A DNA stretch of 64,000 nucleotides from Thermoplasmatales archaeon (GTDB lineage Archaea > Thermoplasmatota > Thermoplasmata > Thermoplasmatales > Thermoplasmataceae). The notes below the pieces were generated by a model. That model was not told the DNA's origin. It did not search any database and saw only the letters and a list, made by a program, of their open reading frames with translations. Below are positions 11,650 to 50,382 of the stretch, piece after piece; the stretch's first letter is position 1, and each line of letters begins with the position of its first letter. The translations under genes and the position numbers were made by a program. The DNA is taken from the NCBI GenBank assembly GCA_026127925.1, contig JAJSLM010000006.1, positions 22,302 through 86,301 of the forward strand, written 5' to 3'.

Positions 11650-11675
11650 AAAAGTGTTAAAAATTAGGAAAGGTC

Positions 11676-31580: not shown

Positions 31581-32420
31581 ATGGCAGTAATAAGTGGTGG
31601 AGACATAGCTCTCATTATTGTGGTTATTATCATATTGATAATATTCCTGAGTGGTTTGCACATTTTAAAGGAATGGGAAAGAGGAGCTGTATTCACTCTC
31701 GGCAGATTCTCAATGATGAAGGGTCCAGGTATCATATACGTGTGGCCTATAATCAGCAAGGTAAGTCCAATACTTTCCACGAGGGTGCAGGTTGTATCAT
31801 TCAAGACAGAGAGTACATTCACAAAAGATAACGTTCCGATAAATGTGGACGCGGTCATGTATTTCCAGATTATCGATCCCCAAAAATCGGTACTGAACGT
31901 TGAAAATTTTGGCTCAGCAACAAATTATTCAGCGCAGACAACACTGAGAGAAGTTCTTGGAAAGAGTTCATTTGACGAAGTCCTCTCTGAAAGGGAGAAG
32001 CTGGGGGAGGAAGCCAGAGAGATTATTGATGAAAAAACCGAGAACTGGGGCATAAAAGTATCTGCAGTCGAGATAAGGGATGTAATAGTTCCACAGAACT
32101 TGCAGGAAGCAATGTCAAGGCAGGCTTCTGCGGAAAGAGAAAGAAGGTCAAGAGTAACGCTGGCCCTGGCTGAGGTTGAGGCAGCGCAGAAAATGGTTGA
32201 AGCTGCAAATCAATACAAGGATGATCCAACGGCTTTCCAGTTGAGATGGTTAAACATACTTTACGAAATAGGTCTAGAAGGCAAAGGAACACTTATGATG
32301 GTTCCAACATTTGTTCCAACAGCCGGAATAGCCGGAAATCCGTTCACTGCCATGGGCATGATGGATGCGTCTGGTAAAAATCTCACTACTCCGGGAAAGA
32401 ATTCTGCAGACAATAAGTGA
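31581..32420 (+). CDS. SPFH/band-7 (stomatin/prohibitin-like) membrane protein
   Basis: N-terminal TM then band-7 domain; A/E-rich coiled C-terminus. Confidence 0.8.
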   Translation: MAVISGGDIALIIVVIIILIIFLSGLHILKEWERGAVFTLGRFSMMKGPGIIYVWPIISKVSPILSTRVQVVSFKTESTFTKDNVPINVDAVMYFQIIDPQKSVLNVENFGSATNYSAQTTLREVLGKSSFDEVLSEREKLGEEAREIIDEKTENWGIKVSAVEIRDVIVPQNLQEAMSRQASAERERRSRVTLALAEVEAAQKMVEAANQYKDDPTAFQLRWLNILYEIGLEGKGTLMMVPTFVPTAGIAGNPFTAMGMMDASGKNLTTPGKNSADNK

Positions 32421-33135
32421 GTTCTACATATTCTTCCGGGGTCAATTCCCCCGGCCTCATATCATGAAATTTCTCGGGAACATTGTTAAGAATAGTCCCT
32501 AATTTTTTTCTTCTGTTTGAAAAAACTGTTCTTAAAATATTGTCTACTTTTGAAAGTAAATCTTCGCCATATGTGTTTCTTAATTTCAGCATTATTATCT
32601 TGGAATTCACCTTCGGCTTCGGATGAAACTTTTCTCTTGAGACTTTTCTGACTGCTGTTATTTCATATCTTAATTGAGCATTTATGGATATCCTTGCATA
32701 GTCTCTGCTATTCGGCCTTGCGATTAGGCGGTCAGAGAATTCCTCCTGCACCATCAAAACTGCTTTGTCGAACTCGAAATCATTCAGTTTGAAAATTATG
32801 CCTGAAGAAATATGGTATGGAATGTTTCCAATGATCCCGTCAAAGGTGGCTTTTTCATGGCTAAGGAAATCCATTTTTTCTATGTTCAATCTTCTGTCAT
32901 TTATTTCGGAGGGAAATTTTTCTCGAAGGATTTCCACAAATCTATGATCGCTTTCTACGCATGTTACCATATAACCGCTATCCAGCAATATTTTCGTAAG
33001 AATTCCCTCGCCGGGCCCTATTTCAAGGATTCTTGATTCGGGTGGAAGCTCAAGCAGCAAAACCTCAAACCGTGCCACATTTCTGTCTTTCAGAAATACC
33101 TGGCCATATCTTCTTGTAAAAAGAGTAGGGTTCAT
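32386..33135 (-). CDS. ksgA: 16S rRNA (adenine1518/1519-N6)-dimethyltransferase KsgA/Dim1
   Basis: GQVFLKD (QNFL-type) and LEIGPGEGILT SAM motif; last gene of the conserved L21e-rpoF-DUF655-ksgA string. Confidence 0.85.
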   Translation of the reverse strand: MNPTLFTRRYGQVFLKDRNVARFEVLLLELPPESRILEIGPGEGILTKILLDSGYMVTCVESDHRFVEILREKFPSEINDRRLNIEKMDFLSHEKATFDGIIGNIPYHISSGIIFKLNDFEFDKAVLMVQEEFSDRLIARPNSRDYARISINAQLRYEITAVRKVSREKFHPKPKVNSKIIMLKLRNTYGEDLLSKVDNILRTVFSNRRKKLGTILNNVPEKFHDMRPGELTPEEYVELTYCLQNSFPE

Positions 33136-33680
33136 TTTGCGACAAAGAGCTTGTATTTCTCGTGGCGTTCCTTGAGTTCCTCTACTATCCTGTTCGCGAG
33201 CATCTTCTGCGGGTTGTGCAAAGTCTTCACTCTCTCGGTGAGATCATTGAAAGACTTGAATGGTTCCTTCTTTCTCTCATCAAGTATTCCCCACATGATC
33301 TTGTTTCCGAGTCCGGGAAGCAACTCCATGGAGTGAAGTCTTGAATTGATCGAATCGGCGGTGTTGAAAAACTTGACAAAATCCTGTTCTCTGGACTGAA
33401 TTATTGCTTCTAGAATATACGGAAGCTCATTTGTTGCGCCTGCAGTTAGTTCGGAATATGATATCCTTCTTCTCACAGAAAGTATCTTGGCTCTTTTTTC
33501 AGGTTCCTTGCCTATGTAAACGCGTTCCCCTATTGCAATAACAGCATCATTCTTGGGAATAAGTTCAAGAAGCTTGAATTCGGTTTCCCCTATCGCCAGA
33601 GCTATTGGTGTCTTATGATACCCCTTTTCTTCCGCTCTCCCCTGTGGCAAATAATCTAAAATGTAAGCATACGATTCCAA
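33132..33680 (-). CDS. DUF655-family RNA-binding protein (conserved archaeal partner of KsgA)
   Basis: Size, YILDYLPQG N-terminus and conserved position between rpoF and ksgA. Confidence 0.55.
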   Translation of the reverse strand: MESYAYILDYLPQGRAEEKGYHKTPIALAIGETEFKLLELIPKNDAVIAIGERVYIGKEPEKRAKILSVRRRISYSELTAGATNELPYILEAIIQSREQDFVKFFNTADSINSRLHSMELLPGLGNKIMWGILDERKKEPFKSFNDLTERVKTLHNPQKMLANRIVEELKERHEKYKLFVAK

Positions 33681-33700
33681 TAGCAGGCACCTCCGGCCAG

Positions 33701-34003
33701 TTAGTCATTAAAATAGTCCTCAACCTTATTTAAATCTTCCTCTGATAGCATAACGCCGTAGGTGGATAATATAACTGTAAGTTCTTCCTTTGTCCCGGGT
33801 TTGAGATCCACAAGCTTTACCGCGGCCTTTTCAGGTAACTTGAATTCACTCATAAGATAATTCACAGCCTTCCTGGCATCCTTTCCTTTGTACTTCAAAA
33901 AAGCCTCTGTATAGGAAAGATTTTCCTTTTCGAAATCGTTATGTTCCTTCTCCTTTGAAAGTATATCGAAAGCTTCCGAGTTGGTTGTGTATTTCGCCTT
34001 CAT
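33701..34003 (-). CDS. rpoF: DNA-directed RNA polymerase subunit Rpo4/F
   Basis: ~100 aa acidic protein immediately downstream of rpl21e, the conserved position of rpoF. Confidence 0.55.
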   Translation of the reverse strand: MKAKYTTNSEAFDILSKEKEHNDFEKENLSYTEAFLKYKGKDARKAVNYLMSEFKLPEKAAVKLVDLKPGTKEELTVILSTYGVMLSEEDLNKVEDYFND

Positions 34004-34005
34004 AC

Positions 34006-34302
34006 TTATCCCTCAATTTTCTTAAGGTGGACAGGTCCTGCAAGCAACTTTTTTTCAACTCCGCCCACTCTGACTGAAAGGATGTAACACTCTCCCTGTT
34101 TGTCTGTTATTCTCCCGGTTAGCCCCTGGAAACCATGATACGGCAGACCAGCGTGTATTGATGGTTCTATGTCTATTGCAGCAAGGTCCCCAATATTGAA
34201 TGATTTCATGAATCTTGAAACTGGAGGGAAACCTCTCTCGCTCTTCCTTTTCGTCATAGTTTTTCTTGATCCGGCCCTCGGGCCGTGTGACATTTTTACC
34301 AT
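34006..34302 (-). CDS. rpl21e: 50S ribosomal protein L21e
   Basis: SHGPRAGSRKTMTKRKSERGFPPVSRFM...GDLAAIDIEPS matches the L21e pattern. Confidence 0.85.
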   Translation of the reverse strand: MVKMSHGPRAGSRKTMTKRKSERGFPPVSRFMKSFNIGDLAAIDIEPSIHAGLPYHGFQGLTGRITDKQGECYILSVRVGGVEKKLLAGPVHLKKIEG

Positions 34303-35460
34303 TTAATCATTCTCCCTGTGTATCTCAACTACGTCAAGATAAAGTATCTCAGGCATTTCCCCGTATTCCCTAGAAATACTTGGTTCAGTTCGTCCATCAT
34401 CCCCATGGACTAACTCCTTAATGTATGTTCCGCTCTCTGCCCTGATCAGCAGAGTAACCTCGCTTTCCGTGGAATCTTCAAGTTCGAGTTTCCTGATGGT
34501 CCTTTTTCTGACTAGATCGGATCTTCTACTGGAAACCCTTAATGGTGTCCTTTGATAAATATCTTTTCCAGAAAATTTTTCTTCAAGCATTTTTAGTTTC
34601 GCCATGTCGACTGTTGTGGGAAATTTCAGTCCAAGGCGGTAGGTCTTGTCATTTTTTTCGGCTTTTATCATAACTACGCTTTCTTTTGATGAAGGCTTGA
34701 GGCCAAAAACTTCAACACCCTCTCCAGAGCCGTTTATCAGCGATTCAAGACCAGATAAACTGAACATCCTCTTCTTGGGATTCTCGACCTCGATTGCGAA
34801 TTCGCGGCCATTGCCGAGCATGAGCACGTCGACGTCCTCTCTTCCGGCTCCGTGCAGGAAAAAATTTGTTCCGTTAGCCAGAAGGTTGATTCTATTTCCG
34901 ATAATTGTCTCGACAGATGGAGAGGAAGGATCCCTATGAATCCATCTGGTTTGAGGGATGCCTCTTACAAGTTTTCTGTATGTTCCAGAGACAAACAGGC
35001 TCTTTATCTGCAGCGAAAAGGAATCGTACCTCATGTCCATTCGTATCATAATTTCCGGTTCCTTGAAGTTGACTTTTTTCTCTGTTTTCTCGGAAATAAA
35101 TTTTCCAAATTCGCGGTTAAATTCCTTTTTTATGCTTTCGCCTTTGTTTTGGAAAATTTCCTGGATTTCCTTTTCCTGTTCAATTGCAGAATCGTCAAAT
35201 GTGGAGCCAACAAGAAAATCATTGAACTCGTATTCTGACAGATCTTTCTGTATCATATCAAAATAATGTTGAAATTTGAGGAATATGCCATTGCAGAACT
35301 GGCAATCATCTTCGTCGACCATCTCATAACCTTTTGATGATAGGGCTTCGAAATGATCTATGAACTTCTCTCCACGTTCTAAATTAGATTCACCATGCCC
35401 TTCTAGAGCAAAACAGCGCCCGAAGCATCTTTTGCATATTTTACGGTAATTCGATGTCAA
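34303..35460 (-). CDS. pus10: tRNA pseudouridine(54/55) synthase Pus10
   Basis: N-terminal CxxC...CxxC zinc THUMP-like region and catalytic AGREDVDVLMLGNGREF motif. Confidence 0.8.
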   Translation of the reverse strand: MTSNYRKICKRCFGRCFALEGHGESNLERGEKFIDHFEALSSKGYEMVDEDDCQFCNGIFLKFQHYFDMIQKDLSEYEFNDFLVGSTFDDSAIEQEKEIQEIFQNKGESIKKEFNREFGKFISEKTEKKVNFKEPEIMIRMDMRYDSFSLQIKSLFVSGTYRKLVRGIPQTRWIHRDPSSPSVETIIGNRINLLANGTNFFLHGAGREDVDVLMLGNGREFAIEVENPKKRMFSLSGLESLINGSGEGVEVFGLKPSSKESVVMIKAEKNDKTYRLGLKFPTTVDMAKLKMLEEKFSGKDIYQRTPLRVSSRRSDLVRKRTIRKLELEDSTESEVTLLIRAESGTYIKELVHGDDGRTEPSISREYGEMPEILYLDVVEIHREND

Positions 35461-35472
35461 GAGATATGCTGA

Positions 35473-35604
35473 TCATTTTGTGTATACTACTTTCTCTATG
35501 CTTGGTCTTTCCTTAACAAAAACTCTGGAACCACATTCGCATTCTATATCGGATGTCCCGTACGACTTTTCCAGCGGGCGGCCACATCTGATACACTTAT
35601 ACAC
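35473..35604 (-). CDS. rpoP: DNA-directed RNA polymerase subunit Rpo12/P (zinc ribbon)
   Basis: YKCIRCG...[13 protein letters not shown] zinc ribbon directly after rpl37ae; a GTG at 35604 is the likely start, since the 62-aa ATG ORF would overlap rpl37ae by 65 nt. Confidence 0.6.
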
Positions 35605-35857
35605 TCTCTGCCACCTCTTGTTTCTTCGGTGCCTGGATAAATTCAGGAGTATAAGATCCACCGGCGAATTTGTATCCGCAATGTCTGCATTCCCAAATGC
35701 CAGAAGACAATCTCTTCACCTTTTTCTGCTTACACGATGGACACGTATAAGCAGCGATTTTCTGCTTTTCGATCTCATTCCACGCTTTTCTTATCGTTAC
35801 TCCGTAGCGAGGACCAAAACGGCCAGAAGCCCCTACCTTAATAGTTCTTTTAGACAT
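35597..35857 (-). CDS. rpl37ae: 50S ribosomal protein L37ae
   Basis: [19 protein letters not shown]...CPSCKQ...CRHCG zinc ribbon. Confidence 0.9.
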
Positions 35858-36214
35858 GTAAGCCACCATCGATCTAAACGATTGCGTTCAGATTCAGGAA
35901 ATACTGAAATTGTTACAAAGATTTAAACATGCCTATGGACGACGGTTGTTCATTTTAATTCGGTTAGAAGATTTCTATAGATATATTTTCTAATGGAATT
36001 TAAAAACAATTGATTTTCCGTTCCTCCCTATTTCGACGGAGGTCGAGCACCATGGAGCCTGTTAATGGTAGGGATATATTAAATCTAAGAATCGCGTATA
36101 AAATGTTCCTGAATTCGATAATGAATTGTTAGCGTGATTTTGCTGATGCAAAACAGGTCTATGATAGCTAATTAAGATAACTATTTATACAGATGATGTG
36201 TTATGTTACTAACT

Positions 36215-36811
36215 ATGAAAGCAAATGAGGTATTAAACCTGTTGCGTATTTCCAGAAAAACGCTTCATGTATATGCATCAACAGGCAAAATAAAATTTAC
36301 AGTTATGCCTAATGGCCATTATGATTACAATGATGAGGATGTTTATAAATTATTGAATAAAGATATTAAAAGAAAGACGATCATCTATGCAAGGGTATCA
36401 ACAACAAAGCAGAAGAATGATCTCGAGAACCAGATACAGCAGTTAAAACAATGGTGCTTTATGAATGGTTATACTATCAATGCGATATATTCAGATGTCG
36501 CGTCAGGAATATCGTTCAATAAGAGGAAAGGACTCTTTGAACTGCTCGATGAAATTATAAATTATAGAGTAGAAAAGGTAATAATAACATATAAAGATAG
36601 ATTAAGCAGAGTTGGCTTTGATTTATTTAAGCATCTTTTTGCTAAATTCGGTACAGAGATTGTTGTTATTTCCGATGTAGGTAGTATAAAATTAGATTCA
36701 GAAGAGATTTTTGAGGACATCATAAGTATGCTTCACTGCTATTCCATGAAGATGTATTCAAAGAGAAGAAAGAATTCAATTGAGGTTGGATATGAAGGTA
36801 ACGAGGACTGA
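36215..36811 (+). CDS. tnpA: IS607-type transposase TnpA (MerR-like HTH plus serine recombinase/resolvase domain)
   Basis: IYARVSTTKQ catalytic serine motif and resolvase core (DRLSR); N-terminal HTH. Confidence 0.85.
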   Translation: MKANEVLNLLRISRKTLHVYASTGKIKFTVMPNGHYDYNDEDVYKLLNKDIKRKTIIYARVSTTKQKNDLENQIQQLKQWCFMNGYTINAIYSDVASGISFNKRKGLFELLDEIINYRVEKVIITYKDRLSRVGFDLFKHLFAKFGTEIVVISDVGSIKLDSEEIFEDIISMLHCYSMKMYSKRRKNSIEVGYEGNED

Positions 36812-38036
36812 ACAGATCTTTATCCGAGACAATGGCACAGTATCTGAAATGTGCCATATATCGAAGAATCTCTATAATCAGGTCAATTACATTCTGAGAA
36901 ACCAGTTCTTCAATAAGGAGAAGATGTCTTCTTAGAAGGAACTTGCAAGACAATTCTCAAGGCCATCTGAGATAGAAGAAAACAACAACTTCCAGAAGCT
37001 CCCAGCACAGACAGCACAATGGACAATAAAGAAGGTAAAACAGTCATGGAATTCATTCTTCAAAGCCATGAGATCATGGAAGAAGCATCCGGAATTATTC
37101 AAGGGAGTTCCAAAACCACCAAGATACAAACATAAGGATGGAGAATTCATTCTCGTATTCACCAATCAGCAGTGTAGTATCCGCGATGGTATATTGAGAT
37201 TCCCAAAAATAATGAATCTGGAGGTTAAGACGAGACTAAAAGATGTGAATCTGAGAGAAGTGAGAATAATACCATTGGGGATCGGTTATAATATCGAGAT
37301 AGTGTATGTGAAAGAGATAACAGATACTTCTGAAATAAAGGCAGAGAGGATTATGGGTATTGATATCGGTGTGAGAAACCTCGCAACCATCGGTAACAAC
37401 ATTCCCGAACAGGGAATTGCTGTAAGGGCGGGATTGATCAAGTCAATAAATCAATACTTCAACAAAGAACTTGCAAGATACAGAAGCATAAACGATCTAC
37501 AGGGAAACGAAAGAAAGGACACAAAAAGGATACGAGAGCTCTTCATGAAACGGAACAACAAGATCAAAGACGTAATGCACAAGGTATCCAGATCAATAAT
37601 AGACTATGCAAAGTCGAAGAACATCGATACAATAGTCATAGGGCACAACGATGGATGGAAGCAATCGGTTAACATGGGAACGAAGAACAACCAGAATTTC
37701 GTTCAGCTCCCCTTCGATACATTGATCCATCAGATTAAGTACAAAGGGGAAGAGATCGGAATTAATGTAATTGTACAGAGAGAGGATCACACAAGCAGGT
37801 GTTCATTCCTTGACAATGAAACAATAGAACATCATGACACATACATGGGAAATAGAATAAGGAGAGGCACATTCAGATCGGCTAACGGAACTCTCATCCA
37901 TGCGGATCTCAATGCATCATACAACATAATAAAGAAGGCAATCCCTGAAGCTTTCGCGAACGGGATAGAGGATATCGGGTTATACCCAAGAAGTTTAAGC
38001 ATCAGACAGATGATAACTTCCAAAGGTGGATGTTAA
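36792..38036 (+). pseudogene. tnpB: TnpB (OrfB, RuvC-like RNA-guided nuclease family) interrupted by an in-frame TAG at 36933-36935; a 322-aa ORF resumes at the internal ATG 37068
   Basis: Manual translation from ATG 36792 gives MKVTRTEQIF...ILRNQFFNKEKMSS*KELARQFS...KLPAQTAQWTIKKVKQSWNSFFKAMRSWKK, continuous with the 322-aa ORF in one frame. RuvC-I GIDIGVRN and RuvC-III HADLNASYNI motifs are present. Confidence 0.75.
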
Positions 38037-38093
38037 CATGGTTAACGGAAATCATAACCTAGTGCGAAGCAATTGTGGTTATAGTGACATAGT

Positions 38094-38741
38094 TTGTTCA
38101 AAGACAGAAAGGAAGCTGGGATTAAACTTGTCAATATCCTCTCAAAAACTGTTCATGCTCCGTGTGTTATTTACGCAATTCCAAGAGGGGGTGTTCCAGT
38201 TGGTTTCGAGATAGCAATGAGAATGAAATGTCCTTTGGAGATCATAGCTGTAAAAAAAATAGGAGCACCTGGTGATGAGGAATTGGCTCTGGGAGCAGTA
38301 ACCGAAGGCAATCCAAAGGAACTGTTCCTGAATGAATATATTATAAGACAATTTCACATCGACAAAGCTCAGTTGGATAGCATCATCAACAGAAAGCATC
38401 ATGAGGCTGATGAACTCGGAAATATATACCGTCAAGGAAGACCAATGATTCTAAACCGCGATGCAGTATCAATTGTGGTCGATGATGGGATTGCTACAGG
38501 TGCAACGGTTATAGCTGCAGTGAACCTCCTGAAGAATCGTGGGCAGGAAAGAATCATAATAGCAACACCTGTTGTAGAGGAAAGTACCGCAGGGCGCCTG
38601 AGATCAATGGTCGATAACCTTGTCTCGGTGGATTTGCCCAAAGAAATGTATTCTGTTGGTGAGTTTTACCAAAATTTTCCGCAAGTTACGGATCAGGAAG
38701 TAATAGTGGCGATGGATAATTCAAGATATTTTATGAACTAG
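38094..38741 (+). CDS. Predicted phosphoribosyltransferase (type I PRTase domain)
   Basis: VSIVVDDGIATGATV PRPP-binding motif. Confidence 0.7.
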   Translation: MFKDRKEAGIKLVNILSKTVHAPCVIYAIPRGGVPVGFEIAMRMKCPLEIIAVKKIGAPGDEELALGAVTEGNPKELFLNEYIIRQFHIDKAQLDSIINRKHHEADELGNIYRQGRPMILNRDAVSIVVDDGIATGATVIAAVNLLKNRGQERIIIATPVVEESTAGRLRSMVDNLVSVDLPKEMYSVGEFYQNFPQVTDQEVIVAMDNSRYFMN

Positions 38742-38770
38742 ATTTAACGTCAGAAAATTCTCATCACTTT

Positions 38771-38850
38771 CGGATGCCAGGAACATCCGACTTCAAAACA
38801 TTTCAATTTCCGAAACGCGTTAGAAATTCTGTCAAAAAAATTTTTTTTGG
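38771..38850. terminator. Candidate bidirectional terminator between the convergent PRTase and rrp42 genes
   Basis: Hairpin CGGATG-ccaggaa-CATCCG at 38771-38789, then palindromic A7T9 tract at 38834-38849. Confidence 0.4.
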
Positions 38851-38859
38851 ACCAGCCCC

Positions 38860-39654
38860 TTATGCTGGTTCTTCCGAGAAAAATTTCTCTCTCAGGGTTT
38901 TACCGACCTGAAGAGAATTGTTAATGGCTGTTTTGACCTCATCCATCGTGAGATAACCTACCTCGCCTTTCTGCATGGCCCTGATATGCCCATCTTCCGT
39001 TGTTGTCACAGTAATCCTTGTAGAACCCATCTGCTCTTCCTCTGTATCGGGATCACATACCAGGACATCACCTATTTTTGACATGGTAACCGATATCGGA
39101 ATATGCTTCAGAACAAGCTTTGTATCTTTCCCACCCTCTTTCGAACCAGGAATAACAGCATTCCTCAGGGCGGATACAGCTGCAAGTGTGCACGCATCGA
39201 TGAGGTTCCCGTCAAAGTCCAGCACATCAATATCAACAAATACGATCCACACTTTTTCTCCGGGAGTTATGACGAGGCTATCCATGTCTATCATTTTACT
39301 CTCTCTGATTCCACGATCTACGACACGGGCAAGTTCAATTGTACCCTCACCTGGAGGTCCAGATTCAAACGTTGGGAACGCCATAGGAAGTAACTCTACA
39401 TTCGTAGTCAAAACACCACTGTCCGGGGTGTCGGGAAAAGGCTCTCCAGATTCTATTTTGACACCGGCGACAACTTTTGTCTTTCCGAGTTCAACTCTGG
39501 CAGAACCAGAAGCCCTTGGTACGTAACCAGGAAAGATCTTTATTTCCCTGAAATCAAGAGGTGATCTCCCATCTCCTCTCTTTCCCTCTTTCAATCTATT
39601 GATTATGTAACTTTTCTTGATCTCAGATAATACCCCTGCTTCATCTTTCGGCAT
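38860..39654 (-). CDS. rrp42: Exosome complex component Rrp42 (inactive RNase PH-like)
   Basis: RNase PH fold pattern, ~264 aa, directly downstream of rrp41. Confidence 0.8.
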   Translation of the reverse strand: MPKDEAGVLSEIKKSYIINRLKEGKRGDGRSPLDFREIKIFPGYVPRASGSARVELGKTKVVAGVKIESGEPFPDTPDSGVLTTNVELLPMAFPTFESGPPGEGTIELARVVDRGIRESKMIDMDSLVITPGEKVWIVFVDIDVLDFDGNLIDACTLAAVSALRNAVIPGSKEGGKDTKLVLKHIPISVTMSKIGDVLVCDPDTEEEQMGSTRITVTTTEDGHIRAMQKGEVGYLTMDEVKTAINNSLQVGKTLREKFFSEEPA

Positions 39655-41090: not shown

Positions 41091-41344
41091 GTATCAAGCC
41101 AATTGCGCACTCAGAATCCAATGCATCCATAACGGACAGGACACAACTCCCGCCTTAAATATGTCTGGATGGAGTGATCAACTGGATATTTTTTACTCTC
41201 TTTTCGGTCTTATATGATACCTGACTATTTATTATTTATTTAACTCCATCTGATGTTCTTGAAAAGAGGTGACTTGGAGTCGAAGTATCGGCCTATGAAT
41301 CTAATTCGGACACGGTAGAAGCTGTTGAATCCAAACACAGGCAC

Positions 41345-42091: not shown

Positions 42092-42705
42092 CTTCGCTTT
42101 GTTGTAGGTATATACGAAGGCCCAAAACATACGGGCTCATATGATTGCTCCTTTCCACTTCCCGTGTAATAAGGAGTCCAGCCAGCTGGGTCCTGAAACA
42201 GCCTTATAGCCTTGATCCTTTTTTCGTTGCATAGATCAAACCAGTGTCTCGTTCCCCTGGGTATGCGGATAAGATCGCCTGTCTCAACCTCTACTGAAAC
42301 AACTTCATCCGTTTCAGTATGGATATAGAATATACCTCTGCCCTCTATTGCGTACCTCACTTCGTCTTCGCTGTGCGTATGTTCCTTCCTGAACTTTTGA
42401 AGCATAGAATCAAGATCAGGGGTATCTGGTTTCATATCAATTACGTCTGCCGTTGTGTAGCCACCTATTCTCTTGAGTCTCCGCACATCTTCATCGTATG
42501 CTTCAAGAATCTTTTCTGGATCGGTTTCATCACTGCTTAATTTGCCAGTATCCCACCTTTCGTAATGTATCCCTATATTTTCCAGAAAAACTTTTGCCTC
42601 TCCACTGCTTTCAATCTTTATACCTTTGTCAGGAACGCTTATAACTACCATTGAATCATCACCTTTTTCTCTTAAATTACATTCCGGAATTAACAAGCCT
42701 TCCAT
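42088..42705 (-). CDS. mtnD: Acireductone dioxygenase (cupin)
   Basis: HTHSEDEVRYAIEGRGIFYIH...IRIPRGTRHWF cupin metal-site pattern of the ARD family. Confidence 0.7.
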   Translation of the reverse strand: MEGLLIPECNLREKGDDSMVVISVPDKGIKIESSGEAKVFLENIGIHYERWDTGKLSSDETDPEKILEAYDEDVRRLKRIGGYTTADVIDMKPDTPDLDSMLQKFRKEHTHSEDEVRYAIEGRGIFYIHTETDEVVSVEVETGDLIRIPRGTRHWFDLCNEKRIKAIRLFQDPAGWTPYYTGSGKEQSYEPVCFGPSYIPTTKRR

Positions 42706-42766
42706 GGACCTCCAACAGGAACTCTAAGACTTCAGTATGCCTCTTTGCAGCCTCAACATTATTCCC

Positions 42767-43342
42767 TCATACATACAGGCCATGGCCGGAAAGAAGGAAA
42801 CAATGTAGGTTTTTATCATTTTTGAGTAAATCGTTGACCTTAGCGGAAAGGGAGAGCATGTCCTGCGAATTTTCTAAAACCGGGATCCATTCGGAATGAT
42901 CGTGAGATACTACGTTTTCAAGTCCTTTGAGCATTTCATATCCCTCCATCTGAAATCCCCCATCCTTGAGGTATTTCTTTGAGAGAATTGTTCCCCAAAT
43001 AGAGTGAGTGTGGAACACGGCGCTACAGTTCCTCTGTTTGATCGCAGCAACATGAAGCAATGTTTCACTTGATGGTTTTCTCTCCCCGGAGAGGATTCTT
43101 CCAAGATCATCAACGTAAACTATGTCTCGCAAGTTCAACATGCTTTTGTCAAGGCCGCTTCCCGTAATGGAAAGAACAAATGGAGATCTCGAGATCAGTG
43201 CACTCAGATTCCCGCTTGTGCCAAAAAGCCATCCTCTTCTGTAGAATTCGTACGCAATTTTTATTAGATCGAGTGAGACGTTAAGATTTGCTTCCCGAAT
43301 CCCCTGGTTTCCTACATTTACTTCCTGCAATTTATTTGTCAC
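42767..43342 (-). CDS. mtnB: Methylthioribulose-1-phosphate dehydratase / class II aldolase-adducin family
   Basis: SGNLS, HTHS and GHG motifs of class II aldolase/MtnB. Confidence 0.65.
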   Translation of the reverse strand: MTNKLQEVNVGNQGIREANLNVSLDLIKIAYEFYRRGWLFGTSGNLSALISRSPFVLSITGSGLDKSMLNLRDIVYVDDLGRILSGERKPSSETLLHVAAIKQRNCSAVFHTHSIWGTILSKKYLKDGGFQMEGYEMLKGLENVVSHDHSEWIPVLENSQDMLSLSAKVNDLLKNDKNLHCFLLSGHGLYV

Positions 43343-43591
43343 TCTAAGGTCCGATTAAGTCATGCTGTTTTAATTTTTTGTGCTAATTTATTACCATTGG
43401 TAATTTACATGATCCAAGCTAGTGTAATATAATTGCCCTATCGTAATATTAGAAACGGGCCGATCCAATGAAGATATTAAGGAGTGAAAAGACTTGGGTT
43501 GACTTGATGGTTATAAGCAGTAGAGGACTATTTGCTTAATTCTAATCCAAATGTTTCTGTAGGAGAATCTTTAGTTGATTTTGATATAAAT

Positions 43592-44284
43592 CTATGGCTT
43601 AAATTCTTGATGCTGAAATAAGTAGATGTAAGAAATGACCATTATTATTGCTAGGAAAGAGGCAGTGGCAAGGCCAAGAGAAGGATCCACGTTAATAATC
43701 CCCTTCTTATAATATTCGAAGCTAGTTAACGGGGTTAAGAAATAAAGTATCATCCCCATGGGCAATCCCGAGGTTATGCCAAGGCTTACATAATTTTCAA
43801 TCAATTCTACTGCAGCAATAGGGATCAAAAGAATAAACACTATACTGATCATAAATGCATTCAACTGAGAAGGCGATAGAGAGGATAAAATGGAAATCGA
43901 CGCATATACCAAAAGAGAAATTAAAATTGGGATAACGAGAAACGTGTTTTTTGTGATCAATAATATGGATACCTCTGTTACTATGAATGGTAAAAGGCCC
44001 AGTGCAAATACTATAAGTTTTGAAATTGCTATTCGTTTCCAACTTCCAAGGAAGGAAAGTTCGAAAACGGTCATAAGTTTATTACGAGTAAAGTGTGATC
44101 CGACAATTAAAATAATAAATGGAATCAGCAACATCTGAGTCAGCAATGAAAATTCCACAAGGCTCTTCAGATATTCAATAGTGTATAATTGTGTAAGAAT
44201 GATCATAGACAATATAGGAACATATATTGGCAGAGGGAATACCCCTTTTAGATACCACTTAACGGTCATTGTCAAATTGGCCAT
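43592..44284 (-). CDS. ABC-2-type transporter permease
   Basis: Six hydrophobic helices; overlaps the ATPase gene by 26 nt. Confidence 0.5.
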   Translation of the reverse strand: MANLTMTVKWYLKGVFPLPIYVPILSMIILTQLYTIEYLKSLVEFSLLTQMLLIPFIILIVGSHFTRNKLMTVFELSFLGSWKRIAISKLIVFALGLLPFIVTEVSILLITKNTFLVIPILISLLVYASISILSSLSPSQLNAFMISIVFILLIPIAAVELIENYVSLGITSGLPMGMILYFLTPLTSFEYYKKGIINVDPSLGLATASFLAIIMVISYIYLFQHQEFKP

Positions 44285-45095
44285 ATATTCTGCGCACTCC
44301 GGATTTTCTGAAACCTATTATTACGCCACTCTCTAACAGCTTCGCAAGTTTTTTTATGTCCGATTTAACAAGACAAATATCACCATACCTGAACAAGCAT
44401 TCCATTTTAATCTGTGCGCTTCTGGTCATGTACACTTCAAAAATGTCTGATGAAAATAGGTCACTTATTGTTCCGTTCCAGACTGCTCGTCCATTGTTAA
44501 GAATCACTATGTAGTCGGCTAGAGTTTCGGCTTCTTCAGGGACATGAGTTGAAAAAATCAAATCTCTATTCATACGGTACATGTCGTTCATTACATTTCC
44601 TGTCCTAGAAATGTCAATGTGAGTGAACGCTTCATCAGCTATTATTCTTGAAGTATTCCGTGAGAAGGCACTTAATAGAGTCATGAGTTGCTCTTGACCT
44701 GACGAGAGCTTAAATAGCCTTTCGTCATAAAATTCTTCAAGATCTAATTGTTTAAGCATGGGCTCAAAATCAGGCCCCAAATCAGGGGAACGGCGAGCAA
44801 AGTTAATAAATTCTTTTACTTTCATCCTGTAGGATAGTTTAGGCTTTTCAAAGAGAAATGTTGAACTTTTAAGTGCTTCGGCTCTGTTTTTATACGGTTC
44901 GATTCCGTTGATCTCCAGAGAACCTGTTGAGGGAGTCAAGATACCTGCTATTATAGAAAGAACTGTTGTTTTGCCACTTCCATTTTGTCCTAAAAAACAT
45001 AATCGGTTTGTTTCTACCTCAAGATTTAAAGTATCCAAGGCTTTTTTTTGCTCGCCAAACTTCTTTGTCAAGTTTTTGGCCTTTAATAAGAACAT
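44259..45095 (-). CDS. ABC transporter ATP-binding protein
   Basis: Walker A GQNGSGKTT, signature LSSGQEQ, Walker B IIADEA. Confidence 0.85.
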   Translation of the reverse strand: MFLLKAKNLTKKFGEQKKALDTLNLEVETNRLCFLGQNGSGKTTVLSIIAGILTPSTGSLEINGIEPYKNRAEALKSSTFLFEKPKLSYRMKVKEFINFARRSPDLGPDFEPMLKQLDLEEFYDERLFKLSSGQEQLMTLLSAFSRNTSRIIADEAFTHIDISRTGNVMNDMYRMNRDLIFSTHVPEEAETLADYIVILNNGRAVWNGTISDLFSSDIFEVYMTRSAQIKMECLFRYGDICLVKSDIKKLAKLLESGVIIGFRKSGVRRIYGQFDNDR

Positions 45096-45100
45096 TGAAT

Positions 45101-45925
45101 TCAGTTCGCCTTCCTATAGACGTATACAGCCAGAATTGCAGAAGAAAGCAATAATATTATGTTCAAAGGGAACGCAAAGCCAAAACCATAATATATCCAC
45201 CCAAACCAGTCTTGGGCGGGAACACCGTTTCCTGTACCAAGGTTCATAATCGTTAGGCCAGCTACATGTATAGCGCTCATGTTGAAAGTGAAGCTTGGAA
45301 ATATATATGTGAGTAAGTTTATCGTGTTATTTGATGCTTGGGTTAGAAACGCGGACATTGCGAGTTGAGAACCGAAGTGTACGTAACTAACCTCTATGTT
45401 TGTAAAATTAGGTTCGTTAAAATAATAATCTGGAAATCCAAGGTAGCCACTTGGGTTCATGTTTTCAGCGGAATGTGATATAGTAAAATTTAATATGCGA
45501 TCACTGACCGTGTTTCCGTTCGGAAACAGCATATTAATAAGACTGTATTCGCTTCTTGTAAAGTTTCCAGAATAGTTGGAAATCTCTACAACAGATGAAC
45601 CATAAAATGGTGGAGCAGGAAGCAATTTAGCATTAAATCCCGTGCCTGTTGGTGAAGGATACACTTTATAGAGTTTCGAGTCAACGTGGTAATATTCAGT
45701 TTTCATTTTCGTTATATTTACTGTTACCCCTAAATCGTACATTGTATAGTTCTTTTTCACAACCGTACCAAAAATACCGTAGTACTCCAGTGAGATCCCC
45801 GAAGAAAAACTATCCTTGTATTCTTTATGTATGTATGTACCAAAAGTATATGTTGATGCAGGGATGAAATTAACAGCGACTCCTATGATCACAAGTGCGA
45901 GTATAACTACTGTCAACTTTTTCAT
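45101..45925 (-). CDS. Hypothetical secreted/membrane-anchored protein
   Basis: N-terminal signal/TM and C-terminal TM helix; N/T/Y-rich. Confidence 0.4.
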   Translation of the reverse strand: MKKLTVVILALVIIGVAVNFIPASTYTFGTYIHKEYKDSFSSGISLEYYGIFGTVVKKNYTMYDLGVTVNITKMKTEYYHVDSKLYKVYPSPTGTGFNAKLLPAPPFYGSSVVEISNYSGNFTRSEYSLINMLFPNGNTVSDRILNFTISHSAENMNPSGYLGFPDYYFNEPNFTNIEVSYVHFGSQLAMSAFLTQASNNTINLLTYIFPSFTFNMSAIHVAGLTIMNLGTGNGVPAQDWFGWIYYGFGFAFPLNIILLLSSAILAVYVYRKAN

Positions 45926-45966
45926 TCATATCCACCAAATGAGAAAAATAATATATATTATTATAT

Positions 45967-46500
45967 CTATGCGTCAAAAGTTACGTCAAAATCAATTGGT
46001 ATGCCACCAACACCTGATTGATAGTAGCCGGTGCCGTAAATGTACACGTAATTCACGTACTGTCCATTACCCACATATTCCATTTGATTTACCAAAGTAC
46101 CTGTCAAATGTTGGCCAACGGCACTGTTTAAACTGTAGTCGACACTACTAGAAAGATCCGTTGAGCTTTCATGACTAGATGTACCCGTGATAGATCCACC
46201 GTCAGGCCAAACTCCACCGCTATTTGTAACTAATTTTGTATTCGTGTTCAGCTGAAAATCTCCATTGTTATAGGTAGCAAAATACTGCCAGTTATTGTTA
46301 ACCCATGCCATGTGGATTCCGAATATGTCTGTGGCATAAACCTGGCTGTACGCATGGTTGCCATAAGAGTCTGCGTGGGTCACACCTGAAATCACCAATA
46401 TAAGCAAAAGCCCAAACAATACTGAAAGTGTTGTTACGAGCAAATGCCACTTCTTTTTACTCTTTTGTGTTTTCATTATGTTGCTCACCAAATGGTTCAT
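45967..46500 (-). CDS. Hypothetical secreted protein
   Basis: K-rich N-terminus then TM/signal, G/Y/N/T-rich body. Confidence 0.4.
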   Translation of the reverse strand: MNHLVSNIMKTQKSKKKWHLLVTTLSVLFGLLLILVISGVTHADSYGNHAYSQVYATDIFGIHMAWVNNNWQYFATYNNGDFQLNTNTKLVTNSGGVWPDGGSITGTSSHESSTDLSSSVDYSLNSAVGQHLTGTLVNQMEYVGNGQYVNYVYIYGTGYYQSGVGGIPIDFDVTFDA

Positions 46501-46985
46501 GTCATATATATATATAATTTTCGTTTAAACTACGCCAATTATAAACCGCTGTTTCAACTTTTGTTGCAGTTTGAGAAATAACCTAACATCAACTCGTTGC
46601 TGTATGGACTATCCAGAATGTAATCCTTATCGACGAGAATGACTATCATTTTCCTTTCCATGTCTTATCTCTCGAAGACGATATTTCAGTATCTATGATT
46701 GTTCACATTCTGGAAGCGTATGAGTGTTTCTCCGTTTTGTGAAATTACATTAACCGTCACAATATTGCTGCGCCCCCCTCCTTGTGGAATAGTATACTCA
46801 TATTGCTGTTTGTCCCATCCATAGTCACTTTATGGTTCTGTGAAAAGACACTGGTCCTCTCTTACAGAATCGACTGGTAACAAATTTCGCTGATAGGAAT
46901 ATACATTATGGATTTACATAAATTTCTCTTGATAAAAGATACTTCTATGAAAATTAACGTATTTATTAATCTAGGGTTGGAGTGG

Positions 46986-47684
46986 CTAACGCGGTTTTAC
47001 GATCCGTATTTCCACGTTCTCCCTGGACTTCCTTGAAAGCTGACTCATTATGTCTCCAACAATTCCAGCAGGTACCTCCAGAAGGCCCATCCATGAGCCA
47101 TCTTTACCCCATTCTTCCTTGATCAGATAACCCGTTCTCAGAATATCGCCATAAACCTTTCCATAGGCATCTCCCGTTAGTTTCACTGCAAGTTTCGTCT
47201 TATCCATTCTAATGGGCAGTATTGGCTTTATTGCCTTTAATATGGTCTGAAGTTGATCCCCTGCGCTCTTGAAAGGGTCGACATGAACTTTTGCCTCTTC
47301 CATAGCCTGTGCAATCCTTACCGCAGGGTGTGGTGTATTTGTCTGCGGGTTTATGGATTCACGTACGATTAGTTCTATAATCTGTTTCTTTCGGCGTTCA
47401 AGCAGTTCTCTTCTCTGGTCTGTAGTGAGTTCAATTTGTCCCTTTCTGACAATCTCGGTTGCAATTTCCTTGATGTCTGCGGTTTTAAAGACTTCTTTTA
47501 TCGCTTCTTCTCCTGCCTTTTCTCCTTTACGAGCGTCTTTGTAAACTTCGTCTATTGCGAGGTCCTGGTCCGCGTCTATCTTTCCTTCCTTGATGCGATC
47601 TGTAGCATCCGGATCGACGAATATCTCGAACTTATGACCGTGTGATTCCAGTCTAGCAATTATCGCATCTTCCAACCTGACCAT
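46986..47684 (-). CDS. sdo1: SBDS-family ribosome maturation protein (Sdo1)
   Basis: MVRLEDAIIARLESHGHKFEIFVDPD N-terminal FYSH domain; conserved superoperon position; the ORF-track start (47756) is likely an upstream artefact. Confidence 0.8.
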   Translation of the reverse strand: MVRLEDAIIARLESHGHKFEIFVDPDATDRIKEGKIDADQDLAIDEVYKDARKGEKAGEEAIKEVFKTADIKEIATEIVRKGQIELTTDQRRELLERRKKQIIELIVRESINPQTNTPHPAVRIAQAMEEAKVHVDPFKSAGDQLQTILKAIKPILPIRMDKTKLAVKLTGDAYGKVYGDILRTGYLIKEEWGKDGSWMGLLEVPAGIVGDIMSQLSRKSRENVEIRIVKPR

Positions 47685-48038
47685 ACGATCCGTTATTTTT
47701 CTATAAGAGAAAAAATTTGCGTATATATTAATTCTGAAAAAAATAGGTGGAATCAAGTTTAGGAAAATTAAAAAGCGAAGATGAATGAGAACAAAGCGTC
47801 ATGTTCCAGACTCAGGAATTAGAGTTTGATTTGCAAAGTTTATGGAATGTGTAATTTATTCATCTATTCTTAATGATTCGTTTACAAAAAGTAATAGCGT
47901 GGCCATCACTGAAGAATCAAGCGGCATTTCGATGAGTTAAAAAATTTAAAAATATAGGGCATATACTTGTTGCAATAGATCTATAAGTCTTATATTGTCA
48001 TTCACTATTAACAATATTGTAAAACTGGACGGATAATA

Positions 48039-48611
48039 ATGAAAGAACTTACACTTTACAGAATCCGGGAAATGGCGCTAGAATCGAAAAGGGCAGTTTA
48101 TACAACACCTCAGTTGTCTAATCTGATTGGCAAAGAATACACTACCGCGTCCGTTTATATGACAAGGCTCTGGAAAAGTGGTCTTGCTAAACATTTGGTA
48201 AGAGGAAAAATTTCTTTCATAGATAACGACTTTGTGAATGCATCTCAGCTAATTGAACCATCTTACATATCCTTATCCTCTGCCTTATTGTTTTACAATG
48301 CATCGCAGCAGGTTCCACGTAGGGTTCAGTCCGTAACTCCTGTCAATTCTATGACGTTCGAAGACCTTGGTTTAGAATATCATAAGATTCCTCCAGGACT
48401 TATGTTCGGTTACGAACGTCACTTAGTAGGGGGAAGTTACTGCTTTGTCGCAACTGTGGAAAAAGCTCTCCTTGATGGGTATTATCTCAACTATTTCTCA
48501 GCAGGGGATCTTGATTCGTATGTAGGGAGTAAAAGAATGAAAGAATTCAGACCTTATTTGGACAAATTTAAGGGCAAAGGAAAATTAAAGCTGCTCGAGG
48601 TGGTCAGATGA
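48039..48611 (+). CDS. AbiEi-family antitoxin / transcriptional regulator (type IV TA)
   Basis: SYISLSSALLFY motif typical of AbiEi; 4-nt overlap with the AbiEii gene. Confidence 0.55.
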   Translation: MKELTLYRIREMALESKRAVYTTPQLSNLIGKEYTTASVYMTRLWKSGLAKHLVRGKISFIDNDFVNASQLIEPSYISLSSALLFYNASQQVPRRVQSVTPVNSMTFEDLGLEYHKIPPGLMFGYERHLVGGSYCFVATVEKALLDGYYLNYFSAGDLDSYVGSKRMKEFRPYLDKFKGKGKLKLLEVVR

Positions 48612-49360
48612 TTGATTCAAAGAAGATAATGGAAATTTCCCAACTATCACACTTGAGGCCATGGCAGCAGGAAAAGCATTATCTGCAGAGTTTAATCCTC
48701 ACAACCATTTCGGACTATCCTCTCGTGTTTAAAGGGGGAACATATCTATGGTTTTTTCACGGGCTTAACAGATTTTCTGAGGATTTAGATTTCACCGCAA
48801 AAGGCCTATTCAAAAGAGAATTGCCTGAATTTGTTTCAAGATCCTTGAGACTATACGGTTATGAAAACAAGTTAAAGATCATAAATGAGAATAATTTCAA
48901 TGTATCAGCAAGATTCATGATCGATGGTCCCCTGCACACGAATGAAAAGGATAGATGCATAGTGTACGTTGAGATCAGCATGAGGGAAAAGGTCATTCTT
49001 CCAGGTATACCATTGAGTATAAATCTTCCCCAATATGATATTCCTGTTCGAACAATCACCGGAATGAACCTTGATGAAGTAGGAGCAGAAAAAGTCAGGG
49101 CAATTCTTACACGAAACAAGGACAGAGACGTATACGATTTATTTTATCTCATTCGTCTAAAGAACATTCTGTTCGATCAGGAATTAATCAACAGAAAGCT
49201 CGACTATTACAATAAAAAATTTGACCCTGCTGAATTTCTCAATAGATTAGGCCAAGCTCAAAAAACGTATAAAAAGGAATTAAGGCAAACAGTTCTGGGC
49301 GAGCTACCTGATTTTGATGTAGTCCGAGCCTATATAGAGAACTGGGTGAAAGGGGGATAA
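48608..49360 (+). CDS. AbiEii/AbiGii-family nucleotidyltransferase toxin (DUF1814)
   Basis: FKGGTYLWFFHGLNRFSEDLDFTA matches the GGTAL...RFSEDIDF signature. Confidence 0.75.
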   Translation: MIDSKKIMEISQLSHLRPWQQEKHYLQSLILTTISDYPLVFKGGTYLWFFHGLNRFSEDLDFTAKGLFKRELPEFVSRSLRLYGYENKLKIINENNFNVSARFMIDGPLHTNEKDRCIVYVEISMREKVILPGIPLSINLPQYDIPVRTITGMNLDEVGAEKVRAILTRNKDRDVYDLFYLIRLKNILFDQELINRKLDYYNKKFDPAEFLNRLGQAQKTYKKELRQTVLGELPDFDVVRAYIENWVKGG

Positions 49361-49530
49361 GGAAATATTTTTGAGAATTGCATTTGATTAAAGCAGAAAC
49401 AACTTTACTTGAATTTCTTACATAAACGTAATTTGTTACCACACTTCTTCCGTATGAACTGCTGCATAGGAATGTTGATGTAAGCAATATATCTAAAAAA
49501 AATTGGTATTGTCGAGAAGCTCTCGAATCT

Positions 49531-50241
49531 TTATGCTTCCTTGAAGACCTTATCAACTTCTTCCTTTGAATAGATGTGGAATTTCTTCCCTTTAACTATC
49601 GTCGCGACCTCGGGACTCCTTATCTCTGATCCTTCTTCACTTACAGATTTAAGTGCCCTTATGCCCAGCAAAACAGCTTCGCTTTCTGACATCCCTTCCT
49701 TGTATTCTTTCTCAAGGAATGCTGTAACCTGATCCTTAAGCGCGCCTATGATCACTGCCCTGTACTCATTGATAGTTCCCGCGGGATCGCAGTCAAAAAG
49801 TTTTGGTGCAATACTGTCTATACCGGCGAAAATCATGGATACACCATACGGTCTTACGCCTCCGTACTGTGTGTATTGCTGCATCTGATCGGCAACTCTC
49901 TTGACAAGGTTCTCAAGGTTCACGAGAGACCCATATGTGATCTTCTCCTGCTGTGCCGCAACCCTTGCAAAATCAACAAGAACTCTCGCATCAGCAACAA
50001 GGCCAGATGTAACGGTTGCAACATTATCATCTATGAGCTGGATCTTTTCCATCGAATTCTGCTCAACCAGTTTACTCTTGAATTTCTTATCAGATATCAG
50101 TGCCACGCCATCTCCAAATTTTATTCCTAAGGCAGTCGAACCTTTCTTAACAGCTTCCCTTGCATACTCTACCTGAAATAACCTGCCATCAGGGGAAAAT
50201 ACAGTTATAGCTCTATCATACGCCATTTGGGCTTGTTGCAT
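49531..50241 (-). CDS. psmA: Proteasome subunit alpha
   Basis: [21 protein letters not shown]-terminal alpha-subunit signature. Confidence 0.9.
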
Positions 50242-50347
50242 TTAATTCACCTTTCTATTCAGTAGGATAATCGAATAATAAATGTTTTCTACAAATTTTC
50301 CTGACGTTATAAAACCTTTTTGTAGTTACCTTTTCATGAATCCAGGT

Positions 50348-50363
50348 GCAAATTTTGTTGTGA
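50348..50363 (-). terminator. Candidate hairpin terminator just downstream of the rad50 stop
   Basis: GCGGAA-(T-rich loop)-TTCCGC inverted repeat 20 nt after the rad50 stop, on the coding strand. Confidence 0.3.
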
Positions 50364-50382
50364 GATGCGGAAAAAATTCCGC

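Follow-up and report, generated by a model that had tools for sequence, protein, structure and literature searches.

Where do accessory genes settle in a conserved row of housekeeping genes, and what does their arrival do to the expression of that row? We address this question in a 64,000-nucleotide stretch of a Thermoplasmatales archaeon genome (GenBank assembly GCA_026127925.1, contig JAJSLM010000006.1, positions 22,302 to 86,301 of the forward strand), which carries the archaeal exosome/proteasome superoperon. This whole stretch is called the window below, and coordinates are window positions unless they follow the handle of another locus (L002 and the like). The window has the same genes as the superoperon in the same order and orientation from psmA through ksgA, with the difference that the row is interrupted by accessory genes at three joints, psmA-SBDS, SBDS-rrp4, and rrp42-rpl37ae. 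A first-pass annotation had taken these interruptions for three insertions into one operon. We consider it likely instead that the neighborhood is a chain of transcription units with accessory DNA at the joints, which arrived in at least five separate events. Conserved upstream regions, TATA-like boxes, T-runs, and recurrent breakpoints suggest several units rather than one operon, namely, psmA, SBDS, rrp4-rrp41-rrp42, and rpl37ae to ksgA.

The gene row in the window and in its relatives

All of the row genes (12/12) lie on the minus strand in the order psmA, SBDS, rrp4, rrp41, rrp42, rpl37ae, rpoP, pus10, rpl21e, rpoF, DUF655, and ksgA, as the first-pass annotation had read them; they were identified by Pfam and NCBIfam matches and ordered by coordinates, and NCBIfam scores exceed the curated cutoff wherever a model for a row gene exists. 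HMM matches also place the accessory genes where that annotation had located them: an AbiE pair between psmA and SBDS, a block with ABC transporter genes and the methionine-salvage genes mtnB, mtnD, and mtnC (mtnBDC) between SBDS and rrp4, and a phosphoribosyltransferase (PRTase) gene plus an IS607 copy between rrp42 and rpl37ae. Rrp41 homologs place the window in the Thermoplasmatales, where Rrp41 identity is 70 to 98%. For comparison we used the regions around rrp41 in 80 species representatives (Thermoplasmatales and related Thermoplasmata), onto which the window proteins were mapped by tblastn.

In these relatives the row rrp4-rrp41-rrp42-L37ae-rpoP-pus10-L21e-rpoF-DUF655-ksgA is compact, with median gaps of 8 to 41 nucleotides (nt). 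The order from rpl37ae to ksgA recurs with gaps of 2 to 41 nt in 56 to 76 relatives, including the extension pus10-rpl21e-rpoF-DUF655-ksgA in 56 to 68. In 75 of 76 loci rrp42 lies next to rpl37ae, at a median distance of 10 nt; the sole exception is L002, a member of the window's own clade. The psmA-SBDS gap has a median of 28 nt. Because gaps are small throughout and rrp42 almost always adjoins rpl37ae, the uninterrupted row appears to be the norm and the interruptions derived, a point on which the synteny comparison bears out the first-pass annotation; the insertion between rrp42 and rpl37ae is found only in the window's clade. The SBDS-rrp4 gap is the widest and most variable of the row (median, 202 nt; >500 nt in 7 of 59 loci), SBDS is missing upstream of rrp4 in 16 of the 68 loci that have >3 kb of upstream sequence, and SBDS abuts rrp4 in more distant Thermoplasmata. 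This joint thus looks like a natural, recurrent breakpoint across the acidophilic order. A metagenome scan with Rrp4 returned only one distant, partial locus.

Closer relatives carry the interruptions in different combinations. L002 (GCA_975651075.1; ∼75 to 79% nucleotide identity) reads Rad50-psmA-SBDS-rrp4-rrp41-rrp42, then PRTase on the opposite strand, then L37ae through ksgA, and is without AbiE, cargo, or insertion sequence. L091 and L092 (73 to 79% identity) have the PRTase gene, together with SDR and QueA-like genes between psmA and SBDS and an IS110-type transposase fragment and DUF2080 gene between PRTase and L37ae; L091 lacks AbiE and mtnBDC and has no cargo between SBDS and rrp4. 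In L003 and L086 to L090 (86 to 89% identity), SBDS is followed by a QueA-like gene and a short-chain dehydrogenase/reductase (SDR) gene on the opposite strand and then by mtnB-mtnD-mtnC-rrp4-rrp41-rrp42; L086 to L090 run on via PRTase to L37ae, and AbiE and IS607 are absent from this group, as far as the L003 contig, which stops in rrp42, can tell. Finally, L084, an ENA contig, is 99.4% identical to the window across Rad50-psmA-AbiE-SBDS and represents essentially the same strain on that left side.

Accessory DNA at the three joints

The DNA directly upstream of rrp4 is the part of the SBDS-rrp4 joint that all congeners have in common. The 170 nt before the rrp4 ATG align in every one of them, including the uninserted L002 and L091 as well as L003 and L084, and congener homology stops exactly at the TAAATAAATAATAAATAG box. 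The TAAATA box within it recurs ∼155 to 165 nt upstream of rrp4 in other genera (L004 to L021), and an SBDS-rrp4 gap of ∼200 to 290 nt with this same box is the norm in the order. Identity of the region is 85% with L002 and 97% with L003, compared with ∼50% and ∼80%, respectively, at third codon positions of rrp4 and rrp41. Because it is conserved in uninserted relatives and changes more slowly than third codon positions, the predicted rrp4 promoter and leader appear to be ancestral and constrained, with the cargo having landed upstream of them. The rrp4 start is most likely the ATG at 41072, preceded by GGTG, which sets the gap to mtnC at 272 nt rather than the 254 nt previously assigned.

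Relative to L002, the cargo at this joint corresponds to 41242 to 46992 (blastn breakpoints). Homology with L003 resumes at 43412, 70 nt upstream of mtnB, and the 5.6-kb block is therefore composite: mtnBDC is shared, and the ABC module is specific to the window type. The mtnBDC genes are common to the window, L003, and L086 to L090 at 79 to 92% amino acid identity and are absent from L002 and L091. MtnC homologs are 70 to 80% identical inside the clade and ≤48% outside it, and the closest mtn homologs outside the clade, likewise ≤48% identical, come from other Thermoplasmatales, Nitrososphaeraceae, and bacteria; at such distances the module would be a divergent or transferred copy. An exact-protein lookup of the 245-amino-acid MtnC gave no match.

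Upstream of mtnB the cargo is variable, and in L003 and L086 the ABC module is replaced by the QueA-like and SDR genes. This cassette ("Queuosine_synth" in the QueA-like member) lies on the strand opposite to the row, between SBDS and mtnB, at L003 5021 to 6788 and L086 757 to 2458; in L091 (10741 to 12425) such a cassette lies between psmA and SBDS instead, and it is not present within the 64-kb window. The two versions are only 35 to 37% identical to each other, and so it looks as if the same kind of pair was acquired independently in each case. In another genus (L016 3109 to 9324; L013 3376 to 9315), a formate dehydrogenase-like cassette, consisting of a 980-amino-acid molybdopterin oxidoreductase, DUF1641, and FdhD, lies between SBDS and the rrp4 promoter, and unrelated cargo thus occupies the same junction there. 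Loss also occurs: L084 (9757 to 10344) and L085 (341 to 928) have an identical deletion junction that joins 46734 to 41838, and the 4.9 kb lost takes out the ABC module, of which both contigs keep the left end, along with mtnB, mtnD, and the 5′ part of mtnC. Sequence downstream of SBDS is thereby joined to the 3′ part of mtnC in a 195-amino-acid chimeric open reading frame (ORF), and no microhomology of more than 1 to 2 nt is visible at the junction. In L084, identity to the window drops from 99.4% left of the junction to 89.7% right of it, a mosaic pattern that points to recombination between strains at the deletion locus; L085 is a more diverged contig.

At the rrp42-rpl37ae joint, the PRTase gene is common to all congeners that can be read there, in the same place and orientation, with amino acid identities to the window of 59% (L002), about 80% (L086 to L090), and 58% (L091). 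In L002 (PRTase at 11641 to 12294) this 59% contrasts with about 92% for the neighboring rrp42 and rpl37ae, suggesting either fast evolution of the gene or its replacement at a fixed site. Named PRTase homologs are mostly bacterial, and one that is 50% identical sits in a different neighborhood in another organism. PADLOC matches of the PRTase were marginal (ShosT, E 0.0017; PRTase_III-A, E 0.006), and we did not assign it a role in defense. Where rrp42 and PRTase converge, the A8T7 tract that separates them is likely a bidirectional terminator. On the rpl37ae side, CCATAGGCATGTTTAAATCTTTG, ∼65 nt upstream of the rpl37ae ATG (35857), is kept in the window, L002, and L086, and the region upstream of rpl37ae is 80% identical to that of L002, compared with ∼50% at third codon positions; the element has no counterpart in other genera, where rrp42 abuts rpl37ae. 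The predicted rpl37ae promoter would thus be new at the level of the clade and linked to the PRTase insertion, and, being common to congeners without IS607, it appears to be older than that element.

The IS607-family element has an exact empty site in L086 to L090, where the counterpart of 38062 is joined to that of 36162, and the comparison reveals no clear target duplication. Its tnpB, read over 36780 to 38036, carries an in-frame stop at 36933 to 36935 (codon 52) after 51 codons of a typical TnpB N-terminus, and the copy is therefore probably decaying, with tnpA apparently intact. We found no second IS607 copy within the window and no match in an exact-protein lookup of TnpA. Only 32 nt separate the end of the element from the PRTase start codon (38062 to 38096, codon included). 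That codon is TTG in the window and ATG in L002 and L086, and the element has displaced the original upstream region of PRTase. Since tnpB and PRTase are co-oriented, read-out from IS607 may drive PRTase. The element lies ∼235 nt upstream of the rpl37ae TATA box and probably affects PRTase rather than rpl37ae. At the position that IS607 occupies in the window, the PRTase-rpl37ae spacer of L091 (4614 to 5726) contains a Transposase_20 (IS110-type) fragment together with a DUF2080 gene; the spacer appears to have been struck independently in that lineage.

Between psmA and SBDS, the AbiE pair is present in the window and L084 (99.4% identical) and absent from L003, L002, and L091. The two genes overlap by 4 nt, and directly before the abiEi start lies an imperfect palindrome. 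Since AbiEi is an autorepressor that acts on its promoter through inverted repeats, this palindrome may be its operator. The T8 run after psmA is likely a terminator, and T-runs are found downstream of psmA in L002 and L003 too. Cut off from psmA, SBDS would need a promoter of its own, a need that the first-pass annotation had overlooked and for which a strong TTAATATATA box ∼40 nt upstream of SBDS supplies a candidate; the 120 nt upstream of SBDS, box included, are conserved with L003, and the box is absent in L002. Att-like direct repeats flanking the inserted blocks amount to short chance matches only, and neither an integrase nor a tRNA gene (tRNA scan of the region) lies near them, so we see no sign of a site-specific integration mechanism. 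In the E-plasma group (L028 7538 to 8458; also L027, L029, and L059), a 306-amino-acid ORF with no Pfam match lies between psmA and SBDS.

Table 1. Features of the psmA-ksgA region, in the direction of transcription of the row (window positions)
Feature	Positions	Strand	Basis or remark
psmA	49531-50241	-	Pfam Proteasome and Proteasome_A_N
T8 run after psmA, likely terminator	49495-49502	-	psmA unit, 49495-50241
AbiE segment	47807-49530	+	blastn breakpoints; between psmA terminator and SBDS promoter (both predicted)
abiEii	48608-49360	+	PADLOC, 221.6 bits; Pfam AbiEii, 88.8 bits
abiEi	48039-48611	+	PADLOC, 78.1 bits
Imperfect palindrome directly upstream of abiEi start	47993-48038		
SBDS with candidate promoter region	46986-47806	-	TTAATATATA box at ∼47722-47731
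SBDS	46986-47684	-	TIGR00291, 258 bits
Low-GC ABC module (u177, u274, ABC ATPase, permease)	43413-46976	-	GC 0.35-0.39
u177, N-terminal membrane anchor	45967-46500	-	hydrophobicity
u274, signal peptide and C-terminal membrane anchor	45101-45925	-	hydrophobicity
ABC ATPase	44259-45095	-	Pfam ABC_tran
Permease with six transmembrane segments	43592-44284	-	hydrophobicity
mtnB-D-C methionine-salvage module with ∼70 nt of its own upstream sequence	41345-43412	-	
mtnB	42767-43342	-	TIGR03328, 150.1 bits (cutoff, 137)
mtnD	42088-42705	-	Pfam ARD, 114 bits
mtnC (245 amino acids)	41345-42082/42130	-	TIGR01691, 198.1 bits (cutoff, 128)
Predicted ancestral rrp4 promoter and conserved leader	41073-41243	-	TAAATA box, 41226-41231, inside TAAATAAATAATAAATAG, 41225-41242
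Exosome core unit rrp4-rrp41-rrp42	38860-41072	-	Pfam; NCBIfam Rrp4
rrp4	40401-41072	-	NF003181, 254 bits
rrp41	39654-40400	-	Pfam
rrp42	38860-39654	-	Pfam
A8T7 tract between rrp42 and PRTase	38834-38848		read from sequence; oligo-T run on both strands
PRTase, TTG start, convergent with rrp42	38094-38741	+	Pfam Pribosyltran
IS607-family insertion sequence, ∼1.9 kb	36163-38061	+	empty site in L086-L090
tnpB	∼36792-38036	+	NF040570, 134 bits, model positions 94-389 only
tnpA	36203-36811	+	NF033518, 187.2 bits (cutoff, 110); Pfam Resolvase, weak MerR/HTH_17
Candidate rpl37ae promoter region, clade specific	35858-35940	-	TATA-like TTTAAAT, 35921-35927; GGTGG ribosome-binding site before ATG 35857
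Downstream unit rpl37ae-rpoP-pus10-rpl21e-rpoF-DUF655-ksgA	32386-35869	-	tightly packed genes
rpl37ae	35597-35857/35869	-	Pfam/NCBIfam
rpoP	within ORF 35473-35661	-	NF001605, 71.9 bits (cutoff, 63)
pus10	34303-35460	-	Pfam
rpl21e	34006-34302	-	Pfam
rpoF	33701-34003	-	Pfam
DUF655 (COG1491)	33132-33680	-	Pfam
ksgA	32386-33135	-	Pfam

The leader upstream of rrp4

The sequence between the predicted promoter and rrp4 is a strongly conserved untranslated leader of ∼130 to 150 nt that ends in a GGTG ribosome-binding site, and many acidophilic Thermoplasmatales have a leader of comparable length behind a box in the equivalent position. We entertain for 41073 to 41205, as a tentative idea with somewhat less than even prospects, an undescribed structured 5′ leader or small RNA that would control the core genes of the exosome; we regard its structure as no more than plausible. 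Single-sequence folds give a rod-like multihelix hairpin in several lineages (z, −1.4 to −2.5). In the sister clades of L004 and L008 (L004 9183 to 9326 and relatives), RNAalifold predicts 27 pairs, 10 of them with double changes, and 92.6% of cells are paired, versus 84% in shuffles (0/500) and 40 to 52% with partners slid. Aligning all leader groups together yielded no RNAalifold consensus structure; only this subgroup gave one. Its covariance model, R1, recovers the unseeded L009 and L021 leaders at E 1e-5 and L019 weakly. On the window clade R1 scores 18 bits in a 601-nt search and 11 to 15 bits, among spurious hits, in 88 kb, and with default filters it does not recover the leaders of the window, L002, and L003; we claim no homology between window-type and L004/L008-type leaders. 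Within the window clade itself 95.5% of cells are paired, with a single double-change pair, a count reached by 108 of 500 shuffles where variation is low. One hairpin there (GGCGGGA/TCCTGTC) has G-U, A-U, and U-A at the same position, and G-C in L091 after manual re-registration.

A scan of 30000 to 53500 against Rfam at E ≤ 1 returned nothing relevant, and no tRNA was found in the region. We also considered a conserved upstream ORF of 16 codons within the leader and rejected it: three of the four differences from L002 within it are nonsynonymous, and the L013-type leader lacks it. If the leader does act as proposed, then together with its own promoter it would insulate rrp4-rrp41-rrp42 from inserts upstream, and this insulation would explain why metabolic cassettes have landed repeatedly at the SBDS-rrp4 joint, mtnBDC and the ABC module in the window and the QueA-like/SDR and FdhA-FdhD cassettes elsewhere.

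Probable order of events, alternative readings, and known systems

From the distribution of the inserts we infer at least five events of different ages, in which accessory DNA would have accumulated only at joints between units. In the genus-level clade's ancestor, a PRTase gene would have been inserted on the opposite strand at the rrp42-rpl37ae joint; this would be the only event to have cut a formerly coupled gene pair, and rpl37ae would now be served by a clade-specific, TATA-bearing promoter. The arrival of mtnBDC, between SBDS and the rrp4 promoter, would date to the ancestor that the window shares with the L003/L086 species; variable cargo would have followed upstream of mtnB, an ABC/surface-protein module here and QueA-like and SDR genes in the sister species, after which some strains would have deleted 4.9 kb. 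An AbiE toxin-antitoxin pair would have settled, in this species, in the interval that separates the psmA terminator from the SBDS promoter, and the IS607 copy with its broken tnpB would have come to lie 32 nt ahead of the PRTase start codon. Because the exosome genes would have kept their ancestral promoter and long leader, their expression need not have changed.

The first-pass annotation had proposed a different history, in which three recent insertions split a single ancestral operon and created a need for new promoters for rrp4 (41091 to 41344) and rpl37ae (35870 to 36150). In its favor, the insertions do exist and, measured against other genera, are derived, and both regions do contain TATA-like boxes. 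We nevertheless give this history little credence. The rrp4 upstream region, box included, is homologous and highly conserved in the uninserted L002 and L091, and a gap with the same box is usual in the order, so this promoter would not be new. The rpl37ae promoter would be new relative to other genera, as proposed; it is shared, however, by congeners without IS607 and so would predate that element. The count of three also gives way once PRTase and IS607 are treated as separate and the 5.6-kb block as composite, with events that differ in age. The opposite view, that the interrupted arrangement is a fixed lineage norm with all inserts old and stable, is in our judgment less probable still. It fits the PRTase gene, present in all congeners readable at its joint, and mtnBDC, common to the window and the L003/L086 species, neither of which would be recent here, and to that extent the test against close relatives set by the first-pass annotation counts against its own reading. 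For AbiE, the ABC module, and IS607, the fixed-norm view is already refuted by presence/absence polymorphism: AbiE is found only in the window and the 99.4%-identical strain, relatives at 86 to 99% identity have the ABC module deleted or exchanged for other genes, IS607 has its empty site in L086 to L090, and L002 and L091 are without cargo between SBDS and rrp4.

A chimeric metagenome-assembled contig with inserts misjoined at repeats seems very improbable. The independent Logan assembly L001 does end at the right end of IS607 (38034), which suggests a multicopy repeat in the genome, but it is 100% identical to the window across all junctions from 38034 to 50400, and L084 supports the psmA-AbiE-SBDS arrangement; given this agreement, the arrangement does not appear to be an assembly artifact. 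In addition, the IS607 flanks are contiguous in L086 to L090, as expected of a true insertion, and the flanks of the row match relatives in synteny (Band7, PRT0, and an amino acid kinase on one side; Rad50, Mre11, HerA, and NurA on the other). Several points weigh against the chain of units that we favor. Conservation, TATA-like boxes, and T-runs are the basis on which all of its promoters, terminators, and unit boundaries are predicted. The SBDS-rrp4 cargo runs in the same direction as the row, and mtnC is followed by no more than weak T-runs, so read-through from the cargo into rrp4 could alter exosome expression. The PRTase identity of 59% between neighbors at ∼90% would also be compatible with independent acquisition or allelic replacement at the same site. 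Finally, the L084 contig stops in rrp42 and so does not reach the PRTase/IS607 site, and the contig of the sister species L003 stops there as well, although the same-type contigs L086 to L090 do carry PRTase.

The superoperon neighborhood was reportedly predicted by comparative genomics by Koonin, Wolf, and Aravind in 2001. The finding is real but largely ordinary when set beside such known systems: a known neighborhood with accessory and mobile genes at its joints. The exosome neighborhood has been described as a group of predicted overlapping operons (PMC2588523), and the exosome superoperon contains SBDS and L37AE (PMC2695463). The RNase P subunit, Brix/IMP4, and prefoldin genes found in the superoperon of some other archaea are not in the window row. 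Unlike the superoperon elsewhere, the window has the NurA-HerA-Mre11-Rad50 cluster directly upstream of psmA on the same strand (50383 to 53106 and further upstream), as do congeners (L002 966 to 7361); in the comparison of the window with L002, identity is only 54% for Rad50 but 94% for psmA, indicating very uneven evolutionary rates across neighboring genes. In Methanococcus maripaludis, rpl37Ae-rpoP and rpl21e-rpoF are operons with internal termination (PMC10450193). Both are adjacent pairs in the window too, which supports the view of a row built from smaller expression units; a difference is that in the window's clade rpl37ae no longer adjoins rrp42 and is preceded by a TATA-bearing region of its own.

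The inserts themselves resemble known elements. The ∼1.9-kb IS607 copy has the serine-recombinase TnpA of its family, followed on the same strand by a tnpB that matches the TnpB model only over positions 94 to 389, and no clear target duplication, and it departs from the family in the stop at tnpB codon 52 and its position 32 nt upstream of a host gene start. The AbiE pair (a predicted type IV toxin-antitoxin/abortive infection system) has the expected regulator followed by a nucleotidyltransferase, with the 4-nt overlap and upstream palindrome, and differs in lying on an archaeal chromosome inside a housekeeping neighborhood. The three contiguous methionine-salvage genes meet the equivalog models for MtnB and MtnC and the Pfam ARD model for MtnD, with the difference that their nearest nonclade homologs are ≤48% identical.

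The locus is a natural experiment in how a deeply conserved housekeeping neighborhood tolerates disruption. At psmA-SBDS and SBDS-rrp4 the inserts appear to sit beside a preexisting terminator or promoter (both predicted), and rrp42-rpl37ae would be the only cut of a translationally coupled pair, accompanied by a conserved, clade-specific predicted promoter. These positions support the view of "superoperons" as chains of independent units. The practical gain is modest: an annotation of units, a dated series of insertions, and a leader before the exosome genes as a candidate regulator, with concrete positions for transcription start mapping in Thermoplasmatales. What remains of most interest is the reuse of the SBDS-rrp4 joint for unrelated metabolic cassettes across the order, next to a conserved long leader of the exosome genes.

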